A DNA stretch of 38,949 nucleotides. Origin: a virus. Taxonomy: Duplodnaviria > Caudoviricetes. Both the position numbers and the translations under genes were made by a program. Below are positions 17,099-38,949 of the stretch, piece after piece (the stretch's first letter is position 1; each line of letters begins with the position of its first letter). The stretch spans positions 1 through 38,949 of the IMG/VR virus record IMGVR_UViG_3300025018_000056, one strand, 5' to 3'. The notes under the pieces are model-generated. The model did no database searches. It was not told the DNA's origin and worked only from the letters and a program-made list of their open reading frames with translations.

Positions 17099-19096
17099 TT
17101 AAGTTACCAACCCTGTTATATTCCAAGGATTACTAACCTCATAAGTAATACCAGCTTCATTTTGCAATACTACACCTTTTAATATTCCTTTTTGATTCCA
17201 TTGGGAAGTATAAATTGCACCCAAAGAACCTGCACCGATATTTGTATTATTATTAATATAAAATGTAAAATTATTTCCATAACCACTATAAGGAGACGCA
17301 CAAGATCTATTATTAGCACTATTCATTACGACATTTTGTATATAGAAAGTTCCTCTACAACCATTACCCGATATACCTATTAATGTTGAATCCACGGCAG
17401 AAGCAACATTTGAATAAATTACTGTTCCAAAATCTGTCCCAGCTGAACCATAATTCACACTCACACCAGAACCAGAAAAATCAGCAACTAATTTACTTAA
17501 ATCACCTTTATAAAGAAAGGTTAAATTTACAGCTTCATCACAACTATTAACTGTTAATTTACCACTCATTACAACATTAGACATCAAACCTTTAAATACA
17601 CTGGTCATTAAACCACTTGCACTAGCACCCCAAACAACATCATTTATCACAAGAGAATCAGTCCCATCGTTGGCAGATTCTACATCATAAGCTACTCCAT
17701 TATGAACGAATTTATAGCTTGTTGGATTTGCTTCAACATCTGACAAACTCCAATTTAAGCCACCTTTGGTGATTGTTGTTTTACCAGCAGGATTATTTGG
17801 GTCTAAAGTAGAATCATACAAAGCAACGTGAGCTCCCACTGTTGAACCATAGGTTTTAACAGAATAAGCCGAACCACCATTAATAATCACTCCCCCATTA
17901 GTTTCTTCAAAAGTCCAATTTTGTCCTTCATAAATTATCAAATCCGCAGTTAAGGTATAAGTACCAGCTTTAACAAAGAAACTTTTATCTTCGCCTTCAA
18001 CAGTTGAGGTTTTATTTAAAGACATATAATCGCCATCGCCTACTACATCGCTTATTTTAATATCGTAACCACCACGATCATACAAAACAGCTTTGCTATC
18101 TTTTAGAAGTTTGCCTAGATAAATACCAGCCATTAATTGACCGTTGGTGTCAAAATGAGTTTCGTCTGTATTTATAGATAAACCACCTGTTTCAACTATT
18201 TTAATTCTAGTATCGGCTGTGGCGTTGGTAACTTTAGCGGAATTTATTGTTCTTCTATCCGCACTACTTGGATTAACTTTATAATTTAGAATACTTTTAA
18301 TTGGATAACCGATATCGCTTTCTATATCAGCAAAGAATTGAGCCTCTGAAGCAGCGTAAGTTGAGGTAGCGGTCGTATCATCTTCACCTTGCCACCACAT
18401 CAAAGTAATTACAGGGTTATATCCCATTGCCTCCATTTGTGCGATAGCTAGTAATGCTTTAGCTTTTGCCGCCTCATAAGTGTCATCGCCTTTATTCCAA
18501 CTATTATCAGCAAAACCAGTACCACCTATTGCGTATTTAACTAAGAAATTTTTTTCAGGGTCGCTTTCTTCTAAATATCTAGCTAAGCCTAATTCTGGTC
18601 CGAAATCTTGACCTGCCAATAAATAGGCATTTGATTTTATAGCCAGACCAGTTTGTCCGCTTGAACAAGTACCTTGAATCGTAAAGTAATCTTCGGTTGT
18701 AGTATTTACTTTATACACTCCATCACAATCGGTAGAGCTTGAAATTTTAACACTTCGTAAAGTCTGCATATTGTGTCCTGTGGAGGAAACAATAGAAGTG
18801 CCATCGCCGACATCGGTTATGTTTTGGATTTCATAAGAAGTTCCATTCCATAAATTCATATCCTTAAAAGTAGCACTAACCGAATCAAACACTTGAAATT
18901 TTGGATAACTTTCTTTGGCAAGTACATCGGCTGACACTTCATATAAACGACCAATACCCTCGGCGTTTGATTGACCAAATTCAAGTATAAGGTTTACATC
19001 TTTTGGCATTGTCTTTGTCGTAGCACCCATATAGACACCTGTGTTACATAATAAAGCGATGATTACTGTTGCTATGTATATTTTTATGTTTTTCAT
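17099..19096 (-). CDS. SGNH sialate O-acetylesterase (SASA/CE6-like) plus beta-helix-like domain; probable virion appendage
   Basis: GQSN, GPE, WWQGE and DETH motifs; N-terminal signal peptide. Confidence 0.8.
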   Translation of the reverse strand: MKNIKIYIATVIIALLCNTGVYMGATTKTMPKDVNLILEFGQSNAEGIGRLYEVSADVLAKESYPKFQVFDSVSATFKDMNLWNGTSYEIQNITDVGDGTSIVSSTGHNMQTLRSVKISSSTDCDGVYKVNTTTEDYFTIQGTCSSGQTGLAIKSNAYLLAGQDFGPELGLARYLEESDPEKNFLVKYAIGGTGFADNSWNKGDDTYEAAKAKALLAIAQMEAMGYNPVITLMWWQGEDDTTATSTYAASEAQFFADIESDIGYPIKSILNYKVNPSSADRRTINSAKVTNATADTRIKIVETGGLSINTDETHFDTNGQLMAGIYLGKLLKDSKAVLYDRGGYDIKISDVVGDGDYMSLNKTSTVEGEDKSFFVKAGTYTLTADLIIYEGQNWTFEETNGGVIINGGSAYSVKTYGSTVGAHVALYDSTLDPNNPAGKTTITKGGLNWSLSDVEANPTSYKFVHNGVAYDVESANDGTDSLVINDVVWGASASGLMTSVFKGLMSNVVMSGKLTVNSCDEAVNLTFLYKGDLSKLVADFSGSGVSVNYGSAGTDFGTVIYSNVASAVDSTLIGISGNGCRGTFYIQNVVMNSANNRSCASPYSGYGNNFTFYINNNTNIGAGSLGAIYTSQWNQKGILKGVVLQNEAGITYEVSNPWNITGLVT

Positions 19097-28945: not shown

Positions 28946-30274
28946 TTAATATGAAATTTGAGGTCTTCTAATTGAAATATTGTTTTCTGCTACATTTTTT
29001 ATCTCAAAGAACATTCTCATCATCATACTATCAGACAAATCAGGACTTCTTCCAAGTATTTCTTTGATTTCTTCTTTAGGGACAATTCTTAGCTTATTAT
29101 CTTTATCAGCGTCTTTTGTTTTTAGCTGTTCAAGTTCTTCAATTAGCAGAGTTCTATCAAGGGTGCTAATTTCTTTTATTGATATAGCACGATTATTTAT
29201 CATTTCAGCTAGTTTGTAGTAGCATTGTGTCTTTAAATTTTGGTAATTTTCTTCTTTTAATGGTCTGGAATTGTTTATAAATCCTTTTATTCCTCTTAAA
29301 ATATCCACCAATCCACCACCAACACCATCATCATCAGCTATTATACTTGAATAAGGGATGTGTTCTTCAATAGCTAGGTTTCTTACTTTCTCGGCTAATT
29401 GGTCTATACCTATTTTTGTAAAGGTTACTATTTTATAAATCGTTAAATCATTCCAAAGCATTATTACACTCTTATCTCTACCATATCTTGCTACATCAAC
29501 TGTCATCCATCTTCTACCATTCTCAGAGTGAGGGTTGGTAAATAAGTCTATAATAGCGTCATAAGTCAGAAGTGCAGAAGGGTCATCATCATATTCCCAA
29601 TTACCAAACATCAATCTTTCTTTTGTAGCTTTATCTTTAATTTGTGCTAGTTGTTTTTTATAACTCTCAGCAGTATAAGGATTATCTGAGTAAAGACTTT
29701 GAATGAAAGCTATATTTTCAGGTAAATTTCCAGCTTTATATGGTTTAAAATAGTCTTGATAAGTCCAATTCTTCTTAGGATTGCCTGTTATCAAGAGCGT
29801 TGGTCTTATTTTATCGTTCAAATGTCTTCCAATACGAGACCCTAAAACATCTTTAGCCAAAGGATGAACCTCCCCAGCTTCTTCTATTGCTCCATCAGAG
29901 TATTCAAGTGAACCAAATCTTTCATATAATGGGTCAGAAGGAATGAATTTAAGGTCTAACAAATCAATTCTACTGCCATTTTTAAACTCTATGTAGTTAT
30001 ATTGTCCGTTAAGTTTCCAATCATCTTTAGGTATATTGTGGTGTTGGGTTACTTTACACCAAGTTACATAAGTAGATTGCATCAAGCGTTTCAATTCTTC
30101 TCTACCAATAAAGGATCGGTAACCTGGATAGAGATAACAGTTTACTAGTCTTGTTTCACATATCAACCAGCTCTTTCCTCCACCAGCACCACCACCGAGA
30201 AATACTTCGTCTTTAATCTTCAATGCTTCCCACGCTTCGTATTGTTTGATTGTCGGCTTCAAGATTATCTCCAT
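28946..30274 (-). CDS. terL: Terminase large subunit
   Basis: Walker A GGGAGGGKS; Walker B AIEEA; TGNP; nuclease motifs VDVARYGRD and SPDLSD. Confidence 0.95.
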   Translation of the reverse strand: MEIILKPTIKQYEAWEALKIKDEVFLGGGAGGGKSWLICETRLVNCYLYPGYRSFIGREELKRLMQSTYVTWCKVTQHHNIPKDDWKLNGQYNYIEFKNGSRIDLLDLKFIPSDPLYERFGSLEYSDGAIEEAGEVHPLAKDVLGSRIGRHLNDKIRPTLLITGNPKKNWTYQDYFKPYKAGNLPENIAFIQSLYSDNPYTAESYKKQLAQIKDKATKERLMFGNWEYDDDPSALLTYDAIIDLFTNPHSENGRRWMTVDVARYGRDKSVIMLWNDLTIYKIVTFTKIGIDQLAEKVRNLAIEEHIPYSSIIADDDGVGGGLVDILRGIKGFINNSRPLKEENYQNLKTQCYYKLAEMINNRAISIKEISTLDRTLLIEELEQLKTKDADKDNKLRIVPKEEIKEILGRSPDLSDSMMMRMFFEIKNVAENNISIRRPQISY

Positions 30275-30650
30275 AGTCAGGTTTTATCATTTTAATTTCT
30301 CTTATTTCTACTACTTCTCTTTCAGTTTCTCCACCTGTAGCTAATTGGTAATTCTTATTTAGTTTATCTACTATTTCAGCTAGGTCTTTTGCTTTGCTTT
30401 TTTCTAGTTTCTTCTCGGTAATATAGGTTATTGCCATTCTTCTTTTATCATCAAGCATTTTAGCCCAATCACTAGTAGCTTTCTTTACGTGTTCACTCTC
30501 TAAAATCATTTGAGGGTTCTTTGCCATTGCTTCAGAATAACCTGCTTCTAATGCTAATTCTCCTAAAGATTTAGTATTTCTAGGTGTGCCAAGATTTTCC
30601 AATAGCAATTTAATAAATTTTTCTTGTCTTGGTGTTCCTAATTCTCCCAT
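30213..30650 (-). CDS. terS: Terminase small subunit
   Basis: TPRQEKF...ALEAGYS HTH motif; immediately upstream of terL. Confidence 0.75.
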   Translation of the reverse strand: MGELGTPRQEKFIKLLLENLGTPRNTKSLGELALEAGYSEAMAKNPQMILESEHVKKATSDWAKMLDDKRRMAITYITEKKLEKSKAKDLAEIVDKLNKNYQLATGGETEREVVEIREIKMIKPDYGDNLEADNQTIRSVGSIED

Positions 30651-30670
30651 ATAATTTTACTAAGTTAAGA

Positions 30671-30865
30671 CTATTTTATAACCACATCTATCTCAGGTTT
30701 GTTTTCTCCTATCTGATAGATTTCGTTTGAGTAATTTTCTTCATCAGTAGCTATCTTTAATTCAGCACCTAGACTCTGCATAAATTCAGCTGTCTTGATA
30801 CTTATAACATCTCTTTCTTCTTTGGTTTTAAATACTTTGATTATAATTTCGTGCATAGGTTTCAT
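30671..30865 (-). CDS. Hypothetical protein
   Basis: TAATATG coupling. Confidence 0.6.
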   Translation of the reverse strand: MKPMHEIIIKVFKTKEERDVISIKTAEFMQSLGAELKIATDEENYSNEIYQIGENKPEIDVVIK

Positions 30866-30866
30866 A

Positions 30867-31085
30867 TTATTCTAGGTGTGACAAATATGTTTGTTGAATC
30901 TTTACTCCTGATAAATTACTTATTTTATCACTTAACATTTTAATAACTATCATTGCGTCTTGAACTTGAAGATTTTTTTCTATTAAGATTTTATAAAACT
31001 CATCAGCTACATTTTGATTTGAGTCAATTCTTTCTTTATTCTCTCTTTCTTCTCTTGATTTTGCTAAGTTTAAAATGTTTGTCAT
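30867..31085 (-). CDS. Hypothetical protein
   Basis: Packed ORF. Confidence 0.6.
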   Translation of the reverse strand: MTNILNLAKSREERENKERIDSNQNVADEFYKILIEKNLQVQDAMIVIKMLSDKISNLSGVKIQQTYLSHLE

Positions 31086-31231
31086 ATTTTTTTAAATCCT
31101 TTATCAGTTAATTTATAAACTCCATCTGATTTTATTTTGGGTTTTATGTTTTTATAAAATTCTTCTCTTTTCTTAAAGTCTTCTTTGGTTGATTTATATT
31201 TAGCTGAGGAATTTTTAGAACAATCACTCAT
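31082..31231 (-). CDS. Small basic protein (49 aa, MSDCSKNSS...)
   Basis: Hand-translated; ATGA overlaps at both ends. Confidence 0.55.
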   Translation of the reverse strand: MSDCSKNSSAKYKSTKEDFKKREEFYKNIKPKIKSDGVYKLTDKGFKKI

Positions 31232-31386
31232 AATTTTTTAGATTTTAAATAAAATTCCCATTCACATTTACATTTGGGACAGAAACAGTAGCCTTTTCCT
31301 TCTCTTATGGCTAAGTCAATATCACAATCAGGGCATTTTCCTGTTAAGTCCTCTGGTTTTTTAATTTCGTGGCGTTTATTTTTCAT
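31228..31386 (-). CDS. Small zinc-ribbon protein (52 aa)
   Basis: Hand-translated; CPDC...CPKC; ATGA overlap. Confidence 0.6.
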   Translation of the reverse strand: MKNKRHEIKKPEDLTGKCPDCDIDLAIREGKGYCFCPKCKCEWEFYLKSKKL

Positions 31387-31824
31387 AGTTAAGTGTAAGG
31401 CATTTATGGATTGGTGATAGTTCGTACATACTTCTAATTCATACTTCTGTTAGTATAAGGTTTTATAGAGCCGTAGCCTTATAGACCTTTGACAAGTAAG
31501 AAAAATGATTAATGGTGAGTATAACAATTCCTCTATCATTATAGTTTGTCCCAAATGCGTTACAATTAAATATTAAAAAAATAGTGCAAAAAAAACACTA
31601 TTTACGTTTACCACCACATTTTTTATTTAGCTTCATAACTCTGACATTACGGAAGCTGAAATTGCTTCTGGTACTTTGCATTTATAAATTCCAAACAGGA
31701 TTTTGAGTTTGCACTCTCTAAGCGTTTATCCAAAATAAATAACAAAGTATCAGAAAATTAATTACCTATATTATACTATACACGATAAATCACGCAACCT
31801 TGGTGAGCGAAAGTTATCCACTTT

Positions 31825-32037
31825 TTAGCCCCAAAGAAAACCATTGTCATATAAATCTAACAGTTCTCTAGCCAAAATATCCATTTCTTTATAGAGTTCA
31901 TTATACTCCCTATCCGATTGGATTTGTTCGTTATAAAAACCTAACTTAGCTAATTCAAGTTTTCTGTACTTAGCTCTCTCTTGCAAGATTACAATTCTCT
32001 TGCGAATATTAATAATTTTGAAACACATATCATACAA
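31825..32037 (-). CDS. Hypothetical protein
   Basis: ORF only; start uncertain. Confidence 0.5.
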   Translation of the reverse strand: MYDMCFKIINIRKRIVILQERAKYRKLELAKLGFYNEQIQSDREYNELYKEMDILARELLDLYDNGFLWG

Positions 32038-32141
32038 GCATTTTAGATATGAATTAAAGGCTCTATTTTGATTAAAAATGTTCGTTTGGGGGGATTATAC
32101 CTTTTGAGGGTGCAATGGGGTTTAAATCGCCAAATTTTAAG

Positions 32142-32732
32142 CTATACGCTATTCTGGTGTTGGAGTTCGTCATACAACTTCTCGTATTTGTCTTTAATCT
32201 CTAAAAGTTGCTCATAAGTCAAAGGTTCTTCGGTATTTCTGCGATAAATAATTTCTCTTACCCATTCTTCGCCAAAATCTTGTTCAAGTCTTTTCCCAAA
32301 TTCATATTCTTCTCCACTCTTAGCAAAATTACATTCTGAACATTGAAGTTGTATATGATTAAATTCAAAGTCAATCGCTTTCCACTTTGTCCTTCCCCTG
32401 TGTTTGAAGTGTCCACCTTGCAATTCTTTGATTGAGAATTGACGACCGCAAGTATAACAACAGGCGTATTCTTTTCCTTTGGACTTTTTAGCTTTTAAAT
32501 ATTTAATAAAAGTAGCCCAAACCTTTTTTCCAAAAACTAAATTTGATTTTGATTTATCTTCTCGTTTTCTTTTGCGTGTTTCTTTTTTTCTTTCCTCTCT
32601 GCGTTTTAAAACTTGTTTTTGGTGTTTTTCTTTTTTGATTATCCACTGGCAGTCAGAACAGAATTTTGAGATGTTAATTCCATTTTGTTTTCTTGGAGTA
32701 AATGGTTGAGAACATTTTGGACAAAGTTTCAT
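32142..32732 (-). CDS. ninG: NinG/Rap-like HNH-family nuclease
   Basis: CYTCG...GHF...NHIQLQCSECN motif; extra N-terminal zinc finger. Confidence 0.8.
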   Translation of the reverse strand: MKLCPKCSQPFTPRKQNGINISKFCSDCQWIIKKEKHQKQVLKRREERKKETRKRKREDKSKSNLVFGKKVWATFIKYLKAKKSKGKEYACCYTCGRQFSIKELQGGHFKHRGRTKWKAIDFEFNHIQLQCSECNFAKSGEEYEFGKRLEQDFGEEWVREIIYRRNTEEPLTYEQLLEIKDKYEKLYDELQHQNSV

Positions 32733-32799
32733 AAGTCTCTTTCGTTGAAATTAGTCTTTAACTTATCATACCATAGTTTTAAGTTGTAGAGAAGAATTT

Positions 32800-33000
32800 T
32801 TAGCATAAAATTTCTGCGGTTTTAACTTCTAAATGACTATACCCTCTTTCTTCAATCCATTTTTTAGCGTCTTTTTTTCTTAAAAAAGCGTTGACACTTT
32901 CGATATAAATTCCATTTTCACCAATCTTATCACATCTTGACCACGCTTCCATTTTCCAGATATTAGGTTTTCCTTTGTGTGCTATTAAATATACTTTCAT
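32800..33000 (-). CDS. Hypothetical protein
   Basis: TAATAATATG start. Confidence 0.6.
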   Translation of the reverse strand: MKVYLIAHKGKPNIWKMEAWSRCDKIGENGIYIESVNAFLRKKDAKKWIEERGYSHLEVKTAEILC

Positions 33001-33030
33001 ATTATTAAATGTTTATATTAAACTTCTTTA

Positions 33031-33366
33031 TTAACAATTATTAAGATTTTCTTCTCTGATATAATTTAACCAAGTATCTTCTTGTATATTTCTTTTCTTT
33101 CTAATTTTTGGGTCAGTAGGTAAAAATAATTTTTCAACATTTTGTACAACACATCTGCATCGTTTTACATTGTCTTCTCTAATTAATTTAAGAGCATTAG
33201 TTGAAATATACCATTTTTTAGTTTCTTCGTCTTGATACATTTCTTCTGGATAATATTCTTGTATAATTTGAAATGTTAGTTGAGCATCATCATTTCTTGT
33301 AAATGGATATTTGTTTAATACGAATAAAACTTTTTCTTTAATTTTTTTTAACCTTTCAGTACTCAT
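33031..33366 (-). CDS. Hypothetical phage protein
   Basis: KVLFVLNKYPFTRNDD...RCRCVVQN...LPT pattern. Confidence 0.7.
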   Translation of the reverse strand: MSTERLKKIKEKVLFVLNKYPFTRNDDAQLTFQIIQEYYPEEMYQDEETKKWYISTNALKLIREDNVKRCRCVVQNVEKLFLPTDPKIRKKRNIQEDTWLNYIREENLNNC

Positions 33367-33367
33367 A

Positions 33368-33538
33368 TTATTTACTTTTAAAAATAATTATAATAGGATT
33401 TTCTGGATAAACGTGTGGTGAGATAGCTTCTAATTCATCAACTTTATTTAATTTTTTAACCAATTCATCTATTGCAACAGCTAATACTTGTTCATCGTTG
33501 GTATCCCAAATTATCTCTGCTTTGAATACTCTTTTCAT
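33368..33538 (-). CDS. Small hypothetical protein (56 aa, MKRVFKAEIIWD...)
   Basis: Hand-translated; TAATATG coupling to the next gene. Confidence 0.6.
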   Translation of the reverse strand: MKRVFKAEIIWDTNDEQVLAVAIDELVKKLNKVDELEAISPHVYPENPIIIIFKSK

Positions 33539-33542
33539 ATAA

Positions 33543-33725
33543 TTATTCTGTTTTATCTAAATCCTCTGCTATTTCTTCTACTTTTTGATTAGTGTAAGGC
33601 TTTGATTCATCTGTTATAGAACCACCAAGAGTAAAGACATCTTTCACAACAGCAATAGGCAACTCTACTGCGATTTGAAATGTTGCTTTAAAAAGTTTTC
33701 CAATCATATATTTTAATTTATTCAC
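33543..33725 (-). CDS. Hypothetical phage protein
   Basis: LPIAVVKDVFTLGG motif; packed ORF. Confidence 0.65.
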   Translation of the reverse strand: MNKLKYMIGKLFKATFQIAVELPIAVVKDVFTLGGSITDESKPYTNQKVEEIAEDLDKTE

Positions 33726-33727
33726 TT

Positions 33728-33970
33728 TTAAGAGTTAAAAACTAAATTGCCTATTTTTTTAATAATCTTGTCTGGTAAATCTAAATCGTCTTTACATTCA
33801 AAGAAATATTTTTGTTTTTTGTTATCATAATATCCTATATATTTTTCTGATAAATCTGGTTTCACTAAAAAATATAAGTATTCTTTAGAGTTAGCTCTAT
33901 TCTGCCCACCATATACTTCGTATTTTTCTTTGTTATGTTGAAAAGTTAAGTATGTTTTTACCATTAACAT
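33728..33970 (-). CDS. Hypothetical protein
   Basis: Intact ORF just beyond the hypermutated tract. Confidence 0.6.
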   Translation of the reverse strand: MLMVKTYLTFQHNKEKYEVYGGQNRANSKEYLYFLVKPDLSEKYIGYYDNKKQKYFFECKDDLDLPDKIIKKIGNLVFNS

Positions 33971-33974
33971 ATAA

Positions 33975-34232
33975 TTATTTTTTAAGAATAAATTTTAAAT
34001 ATTTTAATTTTTAAATGTAAAATTTAAAATTTAGTTCTTATTGTATTTCTACTAATAAAAAATTGATAACTTATTCTCCTTTTCTTTTCTTTAAAACCCA
34101 AACCAAACCACAATCTTCTTTTTTTAAATCTAATAGTTTAATAATTTCTAAAACTTGGTCTTGCCACCTATAAATAGCAAACTTTTTATTCTCTAATTTT
34201 TTGTATTATAAAATATTTCCTATTCCTTCCAT
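33975..34232 (-). pseudogene. 85-aa gene broken by 4 in-frame TAA codons (probably former CAA)
   Basis: MEGIGNIL*YKKLENKKFAIYRWQDQVLEIIKLL...KGE*VIN...IQ*EL...YI*KLKYLKFILKK; fills the gap exactly and has a TAATATG start. Confidence 0.7.
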
Positions 34233-34233
34233 A

Positions 34234-34890
34234 TTAAATTAAAATTTGTTAACTCAATCTCTTTTTAATTATTTCACAATACTCACTTAATATTTCAAAA
34301 CCAATATAATTTCTATTTAAATCCATACAAACACAAACTATTATACCACTACCCATAAATAAATCGTAAATTATATCATTTTCTTTTGAACTCATTAAAA
34401 TAAACTTAAAAAATAACTCTATCGATTTTTGAATAAAATGAACTCTATTTATAAATACAAATATTAATAAATAAGATTTTTCACAATTTCCATTAAATAA
34501 AACATTTCTTTTTTTTACCATCACACATAATTCTCCACTTGATAACCAAAAATATTATCCATTCATTATATTAAAATTTGATTTTACCCAACAAAATTTC
34601 CTTATAATTAAATCATTATTTTTACATTCTTCAAATATATAAAAAAACTATTCATCAACACAAAAAATATAAACACCATTTTTAAAAACTCTAATCATTT
34701 CTTTTATCCATTATAAAACAGTTTCAATACTAATTCCTTTATCCCATTCACCAAAATCTATTTCTCTTAAACCACCATTTTCTTGTGAAATATTGTATGG
34801 AATATCTGTTATTACCAAATCCACAAAATTATCAGGCATTCTTTTCATCGTCTCAAGACAATCTTCATTATAAATCTCATTTATTTTCAT
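34234..34890 (-). pseudogene. Beta-class N4-C/N6-A DNA methyltransferase inactivated by C-to-T hypermutation
   Basis: IYNEDCLETMKRMPDNFVDLVITDIPY N-terminus; degenerate HFIQKS and DLFMGSGII; stops at 34711-13, 34648-50, 34555-57 and 34249-51. Confidence 0.92.
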
Positions 34891-35075
34891 ACTAAATTTT
34901 TATATCTTTTAGTTCTTTTGTCTAGTCTTGTTTTTTCTAATTCACCACCATTATTTTTATAGTATAAGTCTAGTATCTCGGTTAGTTTTTTAGCCATACT
35001 TTTATTTCCTTTTGTTAGGTGTAATCTTTCCCAATTTACCCTATCTATCTTGATGTTTTTTCTCTTATCTAACAT
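34887..35075 (-). CDS. Small basic protein, possible ribbon-helix-helix regulator
   Basis: RKNIKID strand then helices; first substantial gene of the leftward arm; ATGA overlap with the methyltransferase. Confidence 0.55.
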   Translation of the reverse strand: MLDKRKNIKIDRVNWERLHLTKGNKSMAKKLTEILDLYYKNNGGELEKTRLDKRTKRYKNLV

Positions 35076-35508
35076 ATTATTTAGTAAAAAGTATCCAGTG
35101 GCTACTTTACCATTTCCGCCTCATAAATTATTGGTTTATGTAGTTTAAAATTATATAAGATATTAAATTGGTATTAGCAGAAGATTATCAAATGAGGCTC
35201 TCGGTTGTCAGGTAGGACAGAGCCGAGAATTGTATCTGATAACCTTTTGTCCTTGTCAGCTCATTCTGACAAGTTAGCTGTTCCTTAAAAGGTATAAAGA
35301 TTTTGTGGGCAGTTCTTTATAATTAACTGGGTTTAATATCTATTGTATAAAAAAAACGCTTACAACTTGAGAGGAGCTTTGGAGTTAACGAAAAAGTTAA
35401 TTTCCGCCACTCCCCCGCAGTTGTAAACGCTTTTATAGGTTATAAAATTGTACACTACGAGTTGTATCCCAAGTTGGCTCATACGAGCAGTATTTAATAT
35501 TATTTATA

Positions 35509-35537
35509 ATTAAATCACATTATTTAAAACTTGTCAA
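35509..35537 (-). promoter_or_regulatory. Candidate second leftward promoter
   Basis: TTGACA-17 nt-TTTAAT (weak -10); DnaA-like box at 35543-35550. Confidence 0.4.
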
Positions 35538-35660
35538 GAAAGTTATCCACTTTTTTTAAACCTATCAGGAGCAGGTTATCAGTTTTTAACTGAACGAGTC
35601 TTGCGACCACCTGCTCCACATTGCTTTGATAGGTTATCAAGGTCTTGCTTTGATATTTAT

Positions 35661-35689
35661 AGTTTAGCACAAAAATAAAAGATTGTCAA
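35661..35689 (-). promoter_or_regulatory. Leftward sigma70 promoter
   Basis: TTGACA-17 nt-TAAACT with extended -10 TG. Confidence 0.75.
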
Positions 35690-35702
35690 GAAAAAACATA
35701 AC

Positions 35703-35731
35703 TTGACAGGTGGATAAGTTTGTGGTATTAT
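35703..35731 (+). promoter_or_regulatory. Rightward sigma70 promoter with a DnaA-like box in the spacer
   Basis: TTGACA-17 nt-TATTAT with TG; GTGGATAA in the spacer. Confidence 0.8.
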
Positions 35732-35813
35732 ATAAATGGCTTTGGTTGGTGGGCATTGATTAAGTTCATATAAGTTCTTCCCACCAGCCAGAGTTGGTCT
35801 AACTAAGTATTAT

Positions 35814-36077
35814 ATGGAAAAAAGATTTTGGGACATTGATATATTTTTTTCTAACAGTGGAATAATAGAAAAAGGTGTATTTAGTTTCAATAAACTTTAT
35901 GCAGATACAATTACAATAAAAGATGTTGAAAAATTTGTTAAAAGGAAATTAAGAAGATGTGGCAAAAGAGAAAACCCAGATGTAATATGTAGTGCGTGGG
36001 CTGAAAGAGATGGGGATAATTTAGTTGATTATAGAAGTGAAAGGGGAAGAAAAAAATATTATAAAATATATGAGTAA
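35814..36077 (+). CDS. Hypothetical early protein
   Basis: First ORF after the rightward promoter. Confidence 0.65.
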   Translation: MEKRFWDIDIFFSNSGIIEKGVFSFNKLYADTITIKDVEKFVKRKLRRCGKRENPDVICSAWAERDGDNLVDYRSERGRKKYYKIYE

Positions 36078-36420
36078 AAGACAAGACTATTGGTTAGAGA
36101 AAGGATATACAAAAGAACAGATTGAAAATCATCTGTCTTTTGAGAGATATAAAGCTAAACAAACAAGAGATAGAAAGAAAAAGAATAACGAAAAAAACAA
36201 AGAGATTATTGAACAAATTAAAAATGATTTAGTCGGGAAAACTTTTGATAGCGGAAGATTAAAAGTAAAAATATTATCAATTAGTCCAACAATAGATGGT
36301 GTAGGGTTTTGGTTTAAGATGATTAAAACTTTTAAAGATGGAAGTCAAGGAGAGTTTAAAGAGTTTAGTCATTTTGAAAATTATAACAAAGAAGAATTTA
36401 TTGAATACTTAAAATACTAA
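36070..36420 (+). CDS. Hypothetical protein (likely start MSKRQDY)
   Basis: ATATATG context at 36070 preferred over the upstream TTG. Confidence 0.65.
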   Translation: MSKRQDYWLEKGYTKEQIENHLSFERYKAKQTRDRKKKNNEKNKEIIEQIKNDLVGKTFDSGRLKVKILSISPTIDGVGFWFKMIKTFKDGSQGEFKEFSHFENYNKEEFIEYLKY

Positions 36421-36422
36421 TT

Positions 36423-36632
36423 ATGAAATATAGTAAATACCAAAAAGCAAAAATAGAAAAACTTAAACTAAAAGTTTTTGACCTTTACAAGCAAGGATAT
36501 ACTTGTAGAGAAGTTTCTGATTTAATCAAAAATCAGCGTTCTTATACTTGGGTAGCAGATGTTGTTAAAGAGCTTGAAAATAAAGACTTTACTGACTTAT
36601 CCACAACAACATTTGACAAAACAAAACAATAG
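36423..36632 (+). CDS. Helix-turn-helix protein
   Basis: LYKQGYTCREVSDLI...RSYTWV pattern. Confidence 0.7.
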   Translation: MKYSKYQKAKIEKLKLKVFDLYKQGYTCREVSDLIKNQRSYTWVADVVKELENKDFTDLSTTTFDKTKQ

Positions 36633-36641
36633 TGCTACAAT
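36597..36641 (+). promoter_or_regulatory. Consensus DnaA box plus sigma70 promoter
   Basis: TTATCCACA at 36597-36605; TTGACA (36613)-17 nt-TACAAT with TG. Confidence 0.8.
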
Positions 36642-36761
36642 GGTAATGCGAGAATAAATAATTTAAACCTCGCACCAAAAAACCAAAGTGTAGTAAGATG
36701 CATAATCGGTCAAGACTAATTATTCCACTACTACACTTCCTAATTCAATAACTATATTAGT

Positions 36762-36899
36762 ATGAACAAAAAATATTTCTTGCTCAAACAAAGAGCCAAA
36801 GGATTTATTCAAAAAACTTTACGAGACTTGTATAATTTCAAACAAGACTGTAAAGCAACAAACTTCTTAATTAAAAGAAATCCAATTATATGGCGATAA
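36762..36899 (+). CDS. Small basic protein (45 aa)
   Basis: Hand-translated MNKKYFLLKQRAKG... Confidence 0.5.
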   Translation: MNKKYFLLKQRAKGFIQKTLRDLYNFKQDCKATNFLIKRNPIIWR

Positions 36900-37090
36900 C
36901 AGGATTGTCAAAATGGTGTAATGAAAATATATTCACAAGTGCTTTTGAAGGATATAAAATTAAAAACAACACCCAAATAAACAATAATCAAAGATGTTCC
37001 AAATGCGGAACTAAAAAAGATTTATCTGAAATGATAGCTTATCAAAACAGATATGGGTTAGTTAAATATAAATGCAATAATCACTCTTAA
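36890..37090 (+). CDS. Small zinc-finger-like protein
   Basis: CSKC...CNNH. Confidence 0.55.
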   Translation: MAITGLSKWCNENIFTSAFEGYKIKNNTQINNNQRCSKCGTKKDLSEMIAYQNRYGLVKYKCNNHS

Positions 37091-37101
37091 TTATAAATAG
37101 T

Positions 37102-37314
37102 ATGGAAAAACAATACGCAATTATATCACACGATAGACATAGAGATGATTATGTTTATCTTGTAAAATGCGAGGAACAAGATGTAAAAAATTATGTAGAA
37201 AAAATTTGGAAAGAAGATTTTCACTGTGATGCACCATATAAGAGTAATTTGCAATTTACTGACGGAAGTGGAGGTTATACTGTTGAGGTGGCGATATTAA
37301 AAGAAATTAAATAA
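37102..37314 (+). CDS. Hypothetical protein
   Basis: Packed ORF. Confidence 0.6.
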   Translation: MEKQYAIISHDRHRDDYVYLVKCEEQDVKNYVEKIWKEDFHCDAPYKSNLQFTDGSGGYTVEVAILKEIK

Positions 37315-37332
37315 TTATTCTTAATAAATAAT

Positions 37333-37497
37333 ATGAAAATATCAAACTGCTGTTCCTCCCCTGTTAAATGTGAGAGAGATAACGAGGGAGTATGTATGGC
37401 TTGTGGTGAACATTGTTCGGTTGAGGAGGAATATGAAAAGCAAGATGAATTAGCTGAATTAGAGTCTTGGAAAATTAAACAACTGTCATTACAATAA
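37333..37497 (+). CDS. Small Cys-rich protein (54 aa)
   Basis: Hand-translated; SNCCSSPV...GVCMACGEHC. Confidence 0.65.
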   Translation: MKISNCCSSPVKCERDNEGVCMACGEHCSVEEEYEKQDELAELESWKIKQLSLQ

Positions 37498-37498
37498 T

Positions 37499-37717
37499 AT
37501 GAATATATCGCTAGGACAATTAGACCAATTACTTGTGACTTTAAGAGGGTATAAAGATTTAAACAAGATATTTGATTTAAGTTATGAAGAGGCAGGAGAG
37601 AAATTAAGCACTATTACAGACGCACAAAGAGGTAGATTTTATGCCCTTATGTACAATGATAAGTACGAAGATTTAATTAAATTCCTCCAACAAGAGGGAG
37701 TAAATAAATTAGTATGA
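37499..37717 (+). CDS. Hypothetical protein
   Basis: TAATATG coupling. Confidence 0.65.
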   Translation: MNISLGQLDQLLVTLRGYKDLNKIFDLSYEEAGEKLSTITDAQRGRFYALMYNDKYEDLIKFLQQEGVNKLV

Positions 37718-37887
37718 AAATAATTAAACGCATTCCACTAGAAGCCTATGCTTATGAAGAAATAGAGTTTGAGAGTTTAGAAGATTACGAAGAAAATTAT
37801 CCTAAATATGTTCAGACTTTTAAAAGAGTTAGAGAAAAAATTAAATCACAAGAGCCACCTTTTAAAGGTGATGAATTTAAACAATAA
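37714..37887 (+). CDS. Small hypothetical protein (57 aa, MKIIKRIPLEAYAYEEIEF...)
   Basis: Hand-translated; ATGA overlap. Confidence 0.6.
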   Translation: MKIIKRIPLEAYAYEEIEFESLEDYEENYPKYVQTFKRVREKIKSQEPPFKGDEFKQ

Positions 37888-37892
37888 AATAT

Positions 37893-38414
37893 ATGTATCT
37901 AAAATTTCAAGTAGGAGATACCCACGATGTAGAATTTCACAAATATAATACAGGTAAAAAAATAGAAGGAGAATACCAAGGACAACCAACAGTCCAATAT
38001 CTTTATGGTGTGAGAGTAAATGGCGAAGAAACATCTTGGTATACCACCCCTAATACCAATCAAATTTTACAAGAAAATAATTTACAAGTGGGCGATATTA
38101 TCACAGTCGCAAGAGTAGCAGAAAAACAATATGTCTTTACTCGTAATGGTAAAATCTTAATGAAAGCAAATGATAGCGAAGTTAATAAAGTAGTTGCCGA
38201 ACATAATGCCAATAAAACTATAAGTGGTAAAGAATTATTAGATAGAATTAAAAGCCTAGAATTAAAGGTTTCTGTATTAGAGGGTAGATTATCCCAATCA
38301 GAGCCTAAAAGCCCCTTAGAAGCCCAAAATGAGCCAAATAAAGAGCTTACAGTTGAAGAAGTAGAACAAGCATTTGGGGAAGATAGTACCGATGTTTCAA
38401 AAATTCCTTTTTAA
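37893..38414 (+). CDS. Putative ssDNA-binding protein
   Basis: Beta-rich OB-like N-terminus; acidic tail ending IPF as in SSBs. Confidence 0.55.
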   Translation: MYLKFQVGDTHDVEFHKYNTGKKIEGEYQGQPTVQYLYGVRVNGEETSWYTTPNTNQILQENNLQVGDIITVARVAEKQYVFTRNGKILMKANDSEVNKVVAEHNANKTISGKELLDRIKSLELKVSVLEGRLSQSEPKSPLEAQNEPNKELTVEEVEQAFGEDSTDVSKIPF

Positions 38415-38418
38415 AATT

Positions 38419-38766
38419 ATGAAATTACAGATACCTGCAACCATACAATCTTTTAGGACAATGGCTGATAGTGGAATAAGACTAACCGTTGATACCCAAG
38501 AATTAAGTCCAGAAGCAAGTCAAGCCCTTTTAACACTTGTTAAGAAATTTGGTTGGTTATTATTTTCTGAAAATCTTATGAAAGAAGAAGATGTGCCAGA
38601 AGATAAAGCCCCTGAATTCAAATCTGATAAAAGCCCTAGCAAAAGATTAAAAGATTGTCTATTCGTTTATTGGAAAAATAACACTAAACAAACTAAAGAC
38701 TTTGAAACTTTTTGGAGAGAATGGATTGATAAGAAATGCAATGAGATAAAAGATTTATTACCTTAA
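38419..38766 (+). CDS. Conserved phage hypothetical protein (likely start MKLQIPA)
   Basis: RTMADSGIRLTVDTQE...KSPSKRLKDCLFVYW; AT-rich start context at 38419. Confidence 0.7.
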   Translation: MKLQIPATIQSFRTMADSGIRLTVDTQELSPEASQALLTLVKKFGWLLFSENLMKEEDVPEDKAPEFKSDKSPSKRLKDCLFVYWKNNTKQTKDFETFWREWIDKKCNEIKDLLP

Positions 38767-38800
38767 TTAACCAAAGCCAACTAAACAATTAATTTTTAAT

Positions 38801-38949
38801 ATGAAAAATATGTCAAACGTAAACGTGGACAATTCTAGCTACTTGTACAATTCTAGCTACGTGGACAATTCTAGCTCCGTGTACAATTCTAGCTACTTGT
38901 ACAATTCTAGCTACGTGGACAATTCTAGCTACTTGTACAATTCTAGCTA
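38801..38949 (+). CDS. True N-terminus (MKNMSNVNVDNSSY...) of the hexapeptide-repeat protein; continues at 128-659 across the junction
   Basis: ATG at 38801 follows the genome-typical TTAAT context and is in frame with GTG at 38825 (= position 3). Confidence 0.85.
   Translation, partial: MKNMSNVNVDNSSYLYNSSYVDNSSSVYNSSYLYNSSYVDNSSYLYNSS
38823..38949. repeat. 127-bp terminal overlap identical to bases 1-127 (assembly circularisation)
   Basis: The last 127 nt match the first 127 nt exactly. 127 is a common assembler k-mer. The ORF starting at 38801 continues in frame into position 3. Confidence 0.9.

Follow-up and report, generated by a model that had tools for sequence, protein, structure and literature searches.

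In the 38,949-nt phage genome analysed here (the window), the coding (-) strand has lost most of its cytosines over one stretch of 830 nt (33955..34784), the best-scoring depleted segment, in which two adjacent genes are broken. Only 21 C are left where 98-114 would be expected, a loss of 79-82% by composition, and the C-to-T tract is fixed in the assembled population. We consider it probable that a single-strand DNA cytosine deaminase acted in trans and in one burst on an exposed piece of the coding strand, which was then copied before uracil repair. Processes of this kind are known, as are bacterial enzymes that could carry them out; what appears to be new is the natural footprint in a phage.

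The depletion had been noticed on the + strand in a sequence-only reading, which counted about 10 G in 548 nt against about 10 in the next 110 nt. These counts were reproduced exactly: 34233-34780 has 10 G and 99 C among its 548 nt, and 34781-34890 has another 10 G. The lowest G count in any other 548-nt span is 48, and the binomial probability of the depletion is 2e-12 even with a 9% background. The flanks of the tract have a normal 9-10% G, and C content is normal in the intact genes on its upstream (34887..35075, - strand) and downstream (33728..33970, - strand) sides. The purine total of the + strand is 0.417 in the tract and 0.416 in the adjoining downstream gene, unchanged as expected if G became A. 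The 5' edge can be placed only to 34784-34713; the 5' part of the first broken gene, a methyltransferase, is unmutated (codons 1-36; 34785..34890, - strand; 10 C in 106 nt) and served as an internal control. The tract disregards gene limits, spanning the methyltransferase and its neighbor, gene 2, and conversion is uneven, reaching about 85% in the methyltransferase and about 65-70% in gene 2. In codons 38-219 of the methyltransferase, two-fold NNC and NNT codons stand at 1:60, compared with 750:1853 in the other tested genes (p 2.5e-8). Synonymous sites were therefore converted too, which indicates mutation and not selection at the protein level. Promoter-like sites occur at chance level (24 vs 22.4), and a near-palindrome at 34162-34181 is at about chance level by a rough hand estimate.

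The methyltransferase gene (34234..34890, - strand) belongs to the N6/N4 DNA methyltransferases (PF01555). Its read-through sequence scores 98 bits with the N6_N4_Mtase profile, compared with a curated cut-off of 26.7; the gene itself is broken, with four premature stops and 29 further inferred residue-changing C-to-T sites that reach the catalytic and SAM-binding motifs. The stops, all on the - strand, are TAA at codon 60 (34711..34713; Gln in 1 of 13 homologs), TAG at codon 81 (34648..34650; Gln in 13 of 13), TAA at codon 112 (34555..34557; Gln in 13 of 13), and TAA at codon 214 (34249..34251; Gln in 5 of 13 and in P0065, a related methyltransferase described below). The last precedes the natural end (codon 219) by five codons only. 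Every one of the eight premature stops in the two genes is TAA or TAG, and opposite six of them at least one homolog has Gln, the exceptions being gene 2 codons 9 and 74. Intact homologs can be aligned over the full length of either gene, which shows that no frameshift is present, and the earlier description of eight TAA/TAG stops without frameshift was confirmed. The translation likewise has no Pro, Ala, or Thr past codon 57 and carries the motifs HFIQKS and DLFMGSGIIV, as had been read.

To characterize the substitutions, the methyltransferase was aligned with 13 intact homologs (50-69% identity). Past codon 57, 11 of the 52 columns that are invariant in all 13 homologs are changed in the window, and C-to-T explains all 11 while no other single substitution type does; in codons 1-57, 0 of 22 such columns are changed. 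Changes compatible with G-to-A number 0 at invariant columns. With looser conservation, C-to-T fits 12 of 15 changes at 11-of-13 columns and 17 of 25 at 9-of-13 columns, a lower share from which it follows that ordinary divergence is also present. In a leave-one-out control, C-to-T-compatible changes numbered 0-2 per homolog (n=13) versus 12 in the window. The inferred converted sites in the methyltransferase come to 33, with 9-10 cytosines kept. No parent allele was found among 502 protein hits (best 69%) or in the gathered loci, where L065 is the window itself, so each converted site is inferred from relatives. At the DNA level, the share of homolog C that is kept, over the ten closest loci per segment, was 33-35% for codons 1-59 and 8-10% for codons 60-218. 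This comparison is weak and was given little weight, since these loci are distant and the unmutated control segment has an excess of C-to-T as well (49 vs 6). In the 41-nt motif region 34758-34798, contigs of four of the seven sequencing runs described below (X1, X2, X5, and X7) match with 5 differences; they appear to represent another gene of the same methyltransferase subfamily in these samples.

Gene 2 (33975..34232, - strand) has 85 codons and belongs to a family of small four-helix phage proteins. Its four premature stops (34011..34208, - strand) are all TAA, at codons 9, 54, 65, and 74 (positions 34208, 34073, 34040, and 34013), where Gln is found in 0, 3, 5, and 0 of 7 homologs. An exhaustive search returned 8 hits, of which 7 have 81-96 residues and the eighth, an unrelated repeat protein, was dropped. 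The best homolog is 52% identical over its full length, so gene 2 is a real gene. Word-index and locus searches did not pick up these homologs. It retains 1 Pro, Ala, Thr, Ser, or His residue, compared with 10-19 in the seven homologs. C-to-T fits 8 of its 17 novel residues and other substitution types fit 5-6 each, which makes the site-level test weaker here than in the methyltransferase. A partly spared patch (34136..34203, - strand) keeps 6 C in 68 nt where about 1.6 would be expected at 80% loss; its p of 0.006 is uncorrected, the patch having been picked after looking. No match to the family was found in Pfam, PHROGs, PDB sequences, or Foldseek, and scores against C-terminal families of replication initiators were only 0.76-0.78, a lead at most.

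By its pattern of identities, the methyltransferase is a chimera, with ends like those of the SPPY-type methyltransferase P0065 and a middle of the DIPYNISQ subfamily (codons 29-190; 34321..34806, - strand). Codons 1-28 share 25 of 28 residues with P0065 and 16-19 with the DIPYNISQ homologs; codons 29-59 share 4 of 31 with P0065 and 24-29 with the DIPYNISQ homologs; and in codons 191-218 the figures are 22 of 28 (26 if C-to-T is allowed) and 13-18. A protein 94% identical to P0065, P0261, has yet another C-terminal end, and these differing ends point to frequent part-swapping among these phage genes. Besides portal and capsid relatives, a terminase relative at 95% identity was found, which together with P0065 suggests one sister phage. 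Movement of methyltransferase target-recognition domains by recombination at conserved motifs is known (PMC3467074), and as in the window the middle of the gene is exchanged. That report concerns Type III mod genes of Helicobacter pylori, mentions no hypermutation in its available text, and accounts for the chimera but not for the tract. The tract begins about 25-95 nt inside the first chimera junction, and because of this closeness an incoming single-stranded donor is possible as the substrate. Against this idea, 5 cytosines are kept just inside the first junction, and the tract passes the second junction and goes on into gene 2. The chimera and the start of the tract near its junction are both new points.

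The sequence context of conversion was scored at 42 sites, near saturation, with converted sites counted only where the residue changes and with 5' T and C pooled, since T may be a former C. The 33 converted sites include 13 after A, 6 after G, and 14 after a pyrimidine, and 7 of the 9 kept cytosines follow a pyrimidine. On the 5' side, RC was converted at 19 of 21 sites and YC at 14 of 21 (p 0.13), a weak lean to purine; on the 3' side, conversion reached 19 of 20 sites before a pyrimidine and 14 of 22 otherwise (p 0.022). Since AC (13 of 15), GC (6 of 6), and pyrimidine-C were all converted, TC-specific enzymes and BaDTF3 are excluded. A footprint of DddA or BaDTF3 (TC only, or no GC) was accordingly rejected on the GC sites, and kataegis by APOBEC3A/B, which prefers TC/TCW, on the conversion of all 5' contexts. 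The likeness to APOBEC kataegis that had been drawn from the sequence therefore holds for strand coordination and fails for context. Retroviral hypermutation reads as G-to-A on the sense strand. The tract resembles APOBEC3G hypermutation of retroviruses and APOBEC/AID kataegis in affecting one strand, with C-to-T only, a sharp local extent, and premature stops; it differs in lying in a prokaryotic virus, in showing no TC or CC preference, in having about 80% of sites converted, and in placing the changes on the sense strand.

Among known bacterial enzymes, the context fits a loose-context single-strand deaminase such as SsdA or YwqJ, without pinpointing one. SsdA (BaDTF2) is a single-strand DNA cytosine deaminase toxin that accepts all four 5' contexts (PMC7901873; PMC12494967), with a reported in vivo preference for YCY, and YwqJ is a second such bacterial deaminase of loose context (PMC13648612). 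Enzymes of this kind are already published, so the agent need not be an undescribed one as the earlier reading had supposed. The excess of 3' pyrimidine in the tract fits the 3' half of YCY, while its 5' side leans weakly the other way, to purine. Both enzymes share with the tract the single-strand substrate, the four 5' contexts, and C-to-T changes in an ung-minus background; they differ in being interbacterial toxins tested on bacterial chromosomes, and the available text of these reports describes no dense local tract or phage target. DddA (BaDTF1), which requires TC (PMC13346905), and BaDTF3, which is inactive on GC (PMC7901873), are, like the proposed agent, bacterial C-to-T mutagens delivered in trans (PMC7901873); they are double-strand DNA deaminases, whereas the tract is on one strand only and includes the GC and AC conversions given above. 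Dcd and AvcD also use a cytosine-deaminase fold against phages, but their substrate is free nucleotides; in the available account, phage DNA was examined for editing and none was found (10.1101/2021.04.26.441389). Phage-encoded 5mC-selective deaminases, reported as active on ssDNA in vitro, have been proposed to serve nucleotide supply (10.1101/2024.12.05.627091). In an ung-minus yeast single-strand reporter, a deaminase gave one-strand clusters of pure C-to-T changes, at most 12 mutations in an isolate (PMC3521656); at about 80%, the density of the tract is far above that of the clusters described there.

In the mechanism that we propose, about 0.8 kb of the coding strand would have been exposed in one genome molecule and most of its cytosines converted in one burst. 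The exposure may have come from a replication or repair gap, to which we give somewhat more weight, or from a recombination intermediate or the displaced strand of an R-loop, which we rate equally. In transcription it is the coding strand that is displaced; the same strand would be the template for lagging-strand synthesis if replication and the main operon run in the same direction. The agent would be a loose-context enzyme of the SsdA/YwqJ kind that the host itself produced or that came in from a nearby cell or element. Because only C-to-T changes are seen, uracil excision was presumably absent, blocked, or outrun, and the uracils would have been copied as T. Both broken genes would have been dispensable or complemented, so that descendants multiplied. 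The event would be recent, since no other decay is present at the invariant columns. From the original suggestion of one deamination event on exposed ssDNA, a recent, fixed, single-strand C-to-T event is thus retained and the APOBEC-type context is not. No polymerase, integrase, reverse transcriptase, or deaminase was found among the scanned ORFs (45 by PHROGs; 49 window ORFs by Pfam), and the sole deaminase-motif match, at 36917, is C-x-E in a small zinc-ribbon-like protein. The phage genome therefore contains no recognisable deaminase, in agreement with what had been noticed from the sequence.

Starvation for dCTP, for example by a host dCTP-deaminase defence (AvcD/Dcd), would have T or U misincorporated opposite template G in one synthesis patch, and would also yield one-strand C-to-T changes of loose context in a patch-sized tract. 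Such defences deplete dCTP in infection (10.1101/2021.04.26.441389; PMC10511110). Nevertheless, the DNA of phage T7 was examined for C-to-T changes and no increase is given in the available text (10.1101/2021.04.26.441389), and in that of PMC10511110 neither dUTP nor Ung has a role for AvcID. In the tract, one wrong base only was used. A proofreading host polymerase that extends about 80 mispairs in 830 nt is implausible, which counts further against starvation, and we regard this explanation as unlikely.

Chemical deamination by sulfite, nitrosative stress, or long persistence, acting on a long-lived ssDNA gap or on damaged, recombined donor DNA, would agree with a tract that has no strong sequence context, and bisulfite makes one-strand cytosine clusters in the ssDNA of living yeast (PMC3521656). 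The same source indicates that full conversion takes at least 2 M in vitro, while 100 mM in vivo already lowers viability. The kept cytosines are not those predicted to be paired (p 0.77-0.88), so that protection by hairpins is unsupported. Nitrosative chemistry is expected to add A-to-G changes, and these are absent at the conserved columns past codon 57. A chemical origin thus also seems improbable to us.

An artefact would require that the tract came from one damaged, amplified molecule, from treated DNA, or from assembly. Seven aquifer (groundwater) runs, X1-X7, contain the phage. In X1, a single 32-kb contig with a mean depth of 134 covers positions 32500-36500 without a difference, and it is unbroken across the tract and its flanks. 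Contigs inside the tract were listed for X1, X2, and X4 and none for X3, X5, X6, and X7. X2 has an identical 229-nt contig (34614-34842) that includes two stops, and X4 an identical contig over 34679-34829. These two pieces have a depth of 2-3, about 2% of that of X1, and come from the same year and habitat, so barcode cross-talk is possible; the phage shares in X2-X7, 0.05-0.28, are likewise at a level that cross-talk can reach. The library type is not on record, and the evidence is from contigs, which lose rare variants. Against an artefact stands the long contig at depth 134 that spans the tract without a break. As 830 nt exceed a short-read fragment, many molecules would have to agree. If a double-stranded molecule had been damaged on one strand, the other haplotype should also survive; at 80-84% likeness, none of the 7 runs listed a contig with the tract unmutated (contigs only, with rare variants dropped). 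The rest of the genome has no comparable depletion, and the truncated product of 59 residues appears in records from three assembly sources, probably built on the same data. Given the length, the depth, the absent complementary haplotype, and the undamaged remainder, such a fixed tract would be hard to make in a tube, and we hold an artefact to be very unlikely. The sequence-only reading had named two findings that would speak against it, a tract resting on a few molecules and substitutions not dominated by C-to-T; we found a contig depth of 134 and C-to-T only at the invariant columns. X1 also has a second, related phage contig, at depth 6 and with 41 differences in 240 nt at 35826-36065. This co-occurring phage could complement the broken genes or act as a recombination partner.

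The tract knocks out an anti-restriction-type gene, lies on its sense strand, and starts near the swap junction, as might be expected from dedicated, site-directed editing or silencing, either a host defence directed at the methyltransferase cassette as it enters, or RNA editing that reaches the gene through reverse transcription and gene conversion. However, a self search of the genome blind to C/T and a repeat search of 30000-38949 returned no template repeat or second copy, and no RNA family (Rfam), targeting element, or reverse transcriptase was found in the genome. The same damage is absent from 228 other methyltransferase loci, and the tract crosses gene limits. We therefore give site-directed editing very little credence. 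A diversity-generating retroelement comprises a template repeat, a reverse transcriptase, and adenine-specific changes; it was rejected, there being no second copy, no RT match, and changes at C. An alternative code in which TAA and TAG are read as Gln in an AT-drifted but working gene would fit the Gln opposite 6 of 8 stops, but it is excluded for practical purposes because TAA and TAG serve as gene ends genome-wide (41 of 45 other genes, 36 with TAA and 5 with TAG), long frames are open under table 11, and the loss of invariant Pro, Ala, Thr, and Ser is beyond the reach of recoding.

Deaminase hypermutation of viral DNA is a core animal defence, and such scars are familiar from animal retroviruses. 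In titles and abstract openings of the open-access literature, no phage genome was found described with a natural C-to-T tract on one strand. The fixed, near-saturating tract means that prokaryotic viruses can suffer and outlive such a burst. It also gives a searchable signature, loss of C on one strand together with Gln-to-stop changes, that can be sought in existing metagenomes and makes two ideas testable: that prokaryotes edit the DNA that invades them, and that wild genomes carry jumps of about 80 mutations left by deaminase toxins. If the tract is collateral damage of the known toxin class, it would still be a natural footprint of the kind that those studies predicted; the finding would have far greater weight if a dedicated antiviral editor were behind it. 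More tentatively, and with considerable doubt, we suggest that some uncultured groundwater prokaryotes might defend themselves with an APOBEC-like editor that saturates exposed single-stranded phage DNA with uracil, that this phage survived since the burst struck two dispensable genes, and that such scars could map the hosts of the enzyme.

The suggested scan for similar C-depleted tracts found no second one in 278 other loci (1.8 Mb including the locus of the window). Of 279 loci passed through a composition detector, 2 were flagged: the window, and L269 for an intact gene that is AT-rich. Among 229 methyltransferase loci, 3 have a stop, and C is scarce in the window alone. Of two degenerate scans of the viral collection for a methyltransferase motif after C-to-T conversion, one had 0 hits and the other 1 chance hit, in an intact unrelated gene. 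In L175 (4200-5200), and also in L176 near 3219, small genes with open frames are G+T-rich and poor in C and A; in L175, whose terminase is 51% identical, 400 nt have 11 C and 123 G, and such genes alternate with A-rich ones. This strand skew is chronic, unlike the acute tract of the window.

The record corresponds to the whole window, and its two ends share an overlap of 127 nt that falls within an 18-nt coding repeat, which identifies a complete circular phage genome. The 18-nt tandem repeat (38824-38949 and 1-330) codes for a hexapeptide repeat (VDNSSY-like) and bridges both ends; its copy number across them is uncertain. Recognised genes include those for terminase, portal, capsid, and a NinG-like protein. 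The terminase relatives at 61-66% identity come from bins with mixed labels (Bacteroidia, Patescibacteria, and Tenericutes), and the cultured relatives at 37-46% infect Bacteroidota. A 740-nt non-coding region (35076-35813) separates divergent operons at a point where the GC skew switches and carries a back-to-back pair of good sigma-70-like sites (35703+ and 35689-); lying 300 nt from the tract-bearing operon, it is a candidate for a control region or an origin. No ORF of 60 codons occurs in about 740 nt (31086-31824) that separate NinG from the terminase block; the G content there is normal, which ruled this stretch out as a second tract. The 173-residue protein of 37893-38414 ends in an acidic tail with IPF, which we take to resemble that of single-strand binding proteins, and its atlas clusters are of phage and unnamed only. 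A virion-region protein (17099-19096) has a sialic-acid acetylesterase (SASA) domain (E 1e-18). In a related phage (L162, 2100-2900), the terminase seems by its translation motif to bear an intein-like insertion, presumably of the LAGLIDADG-like kind.
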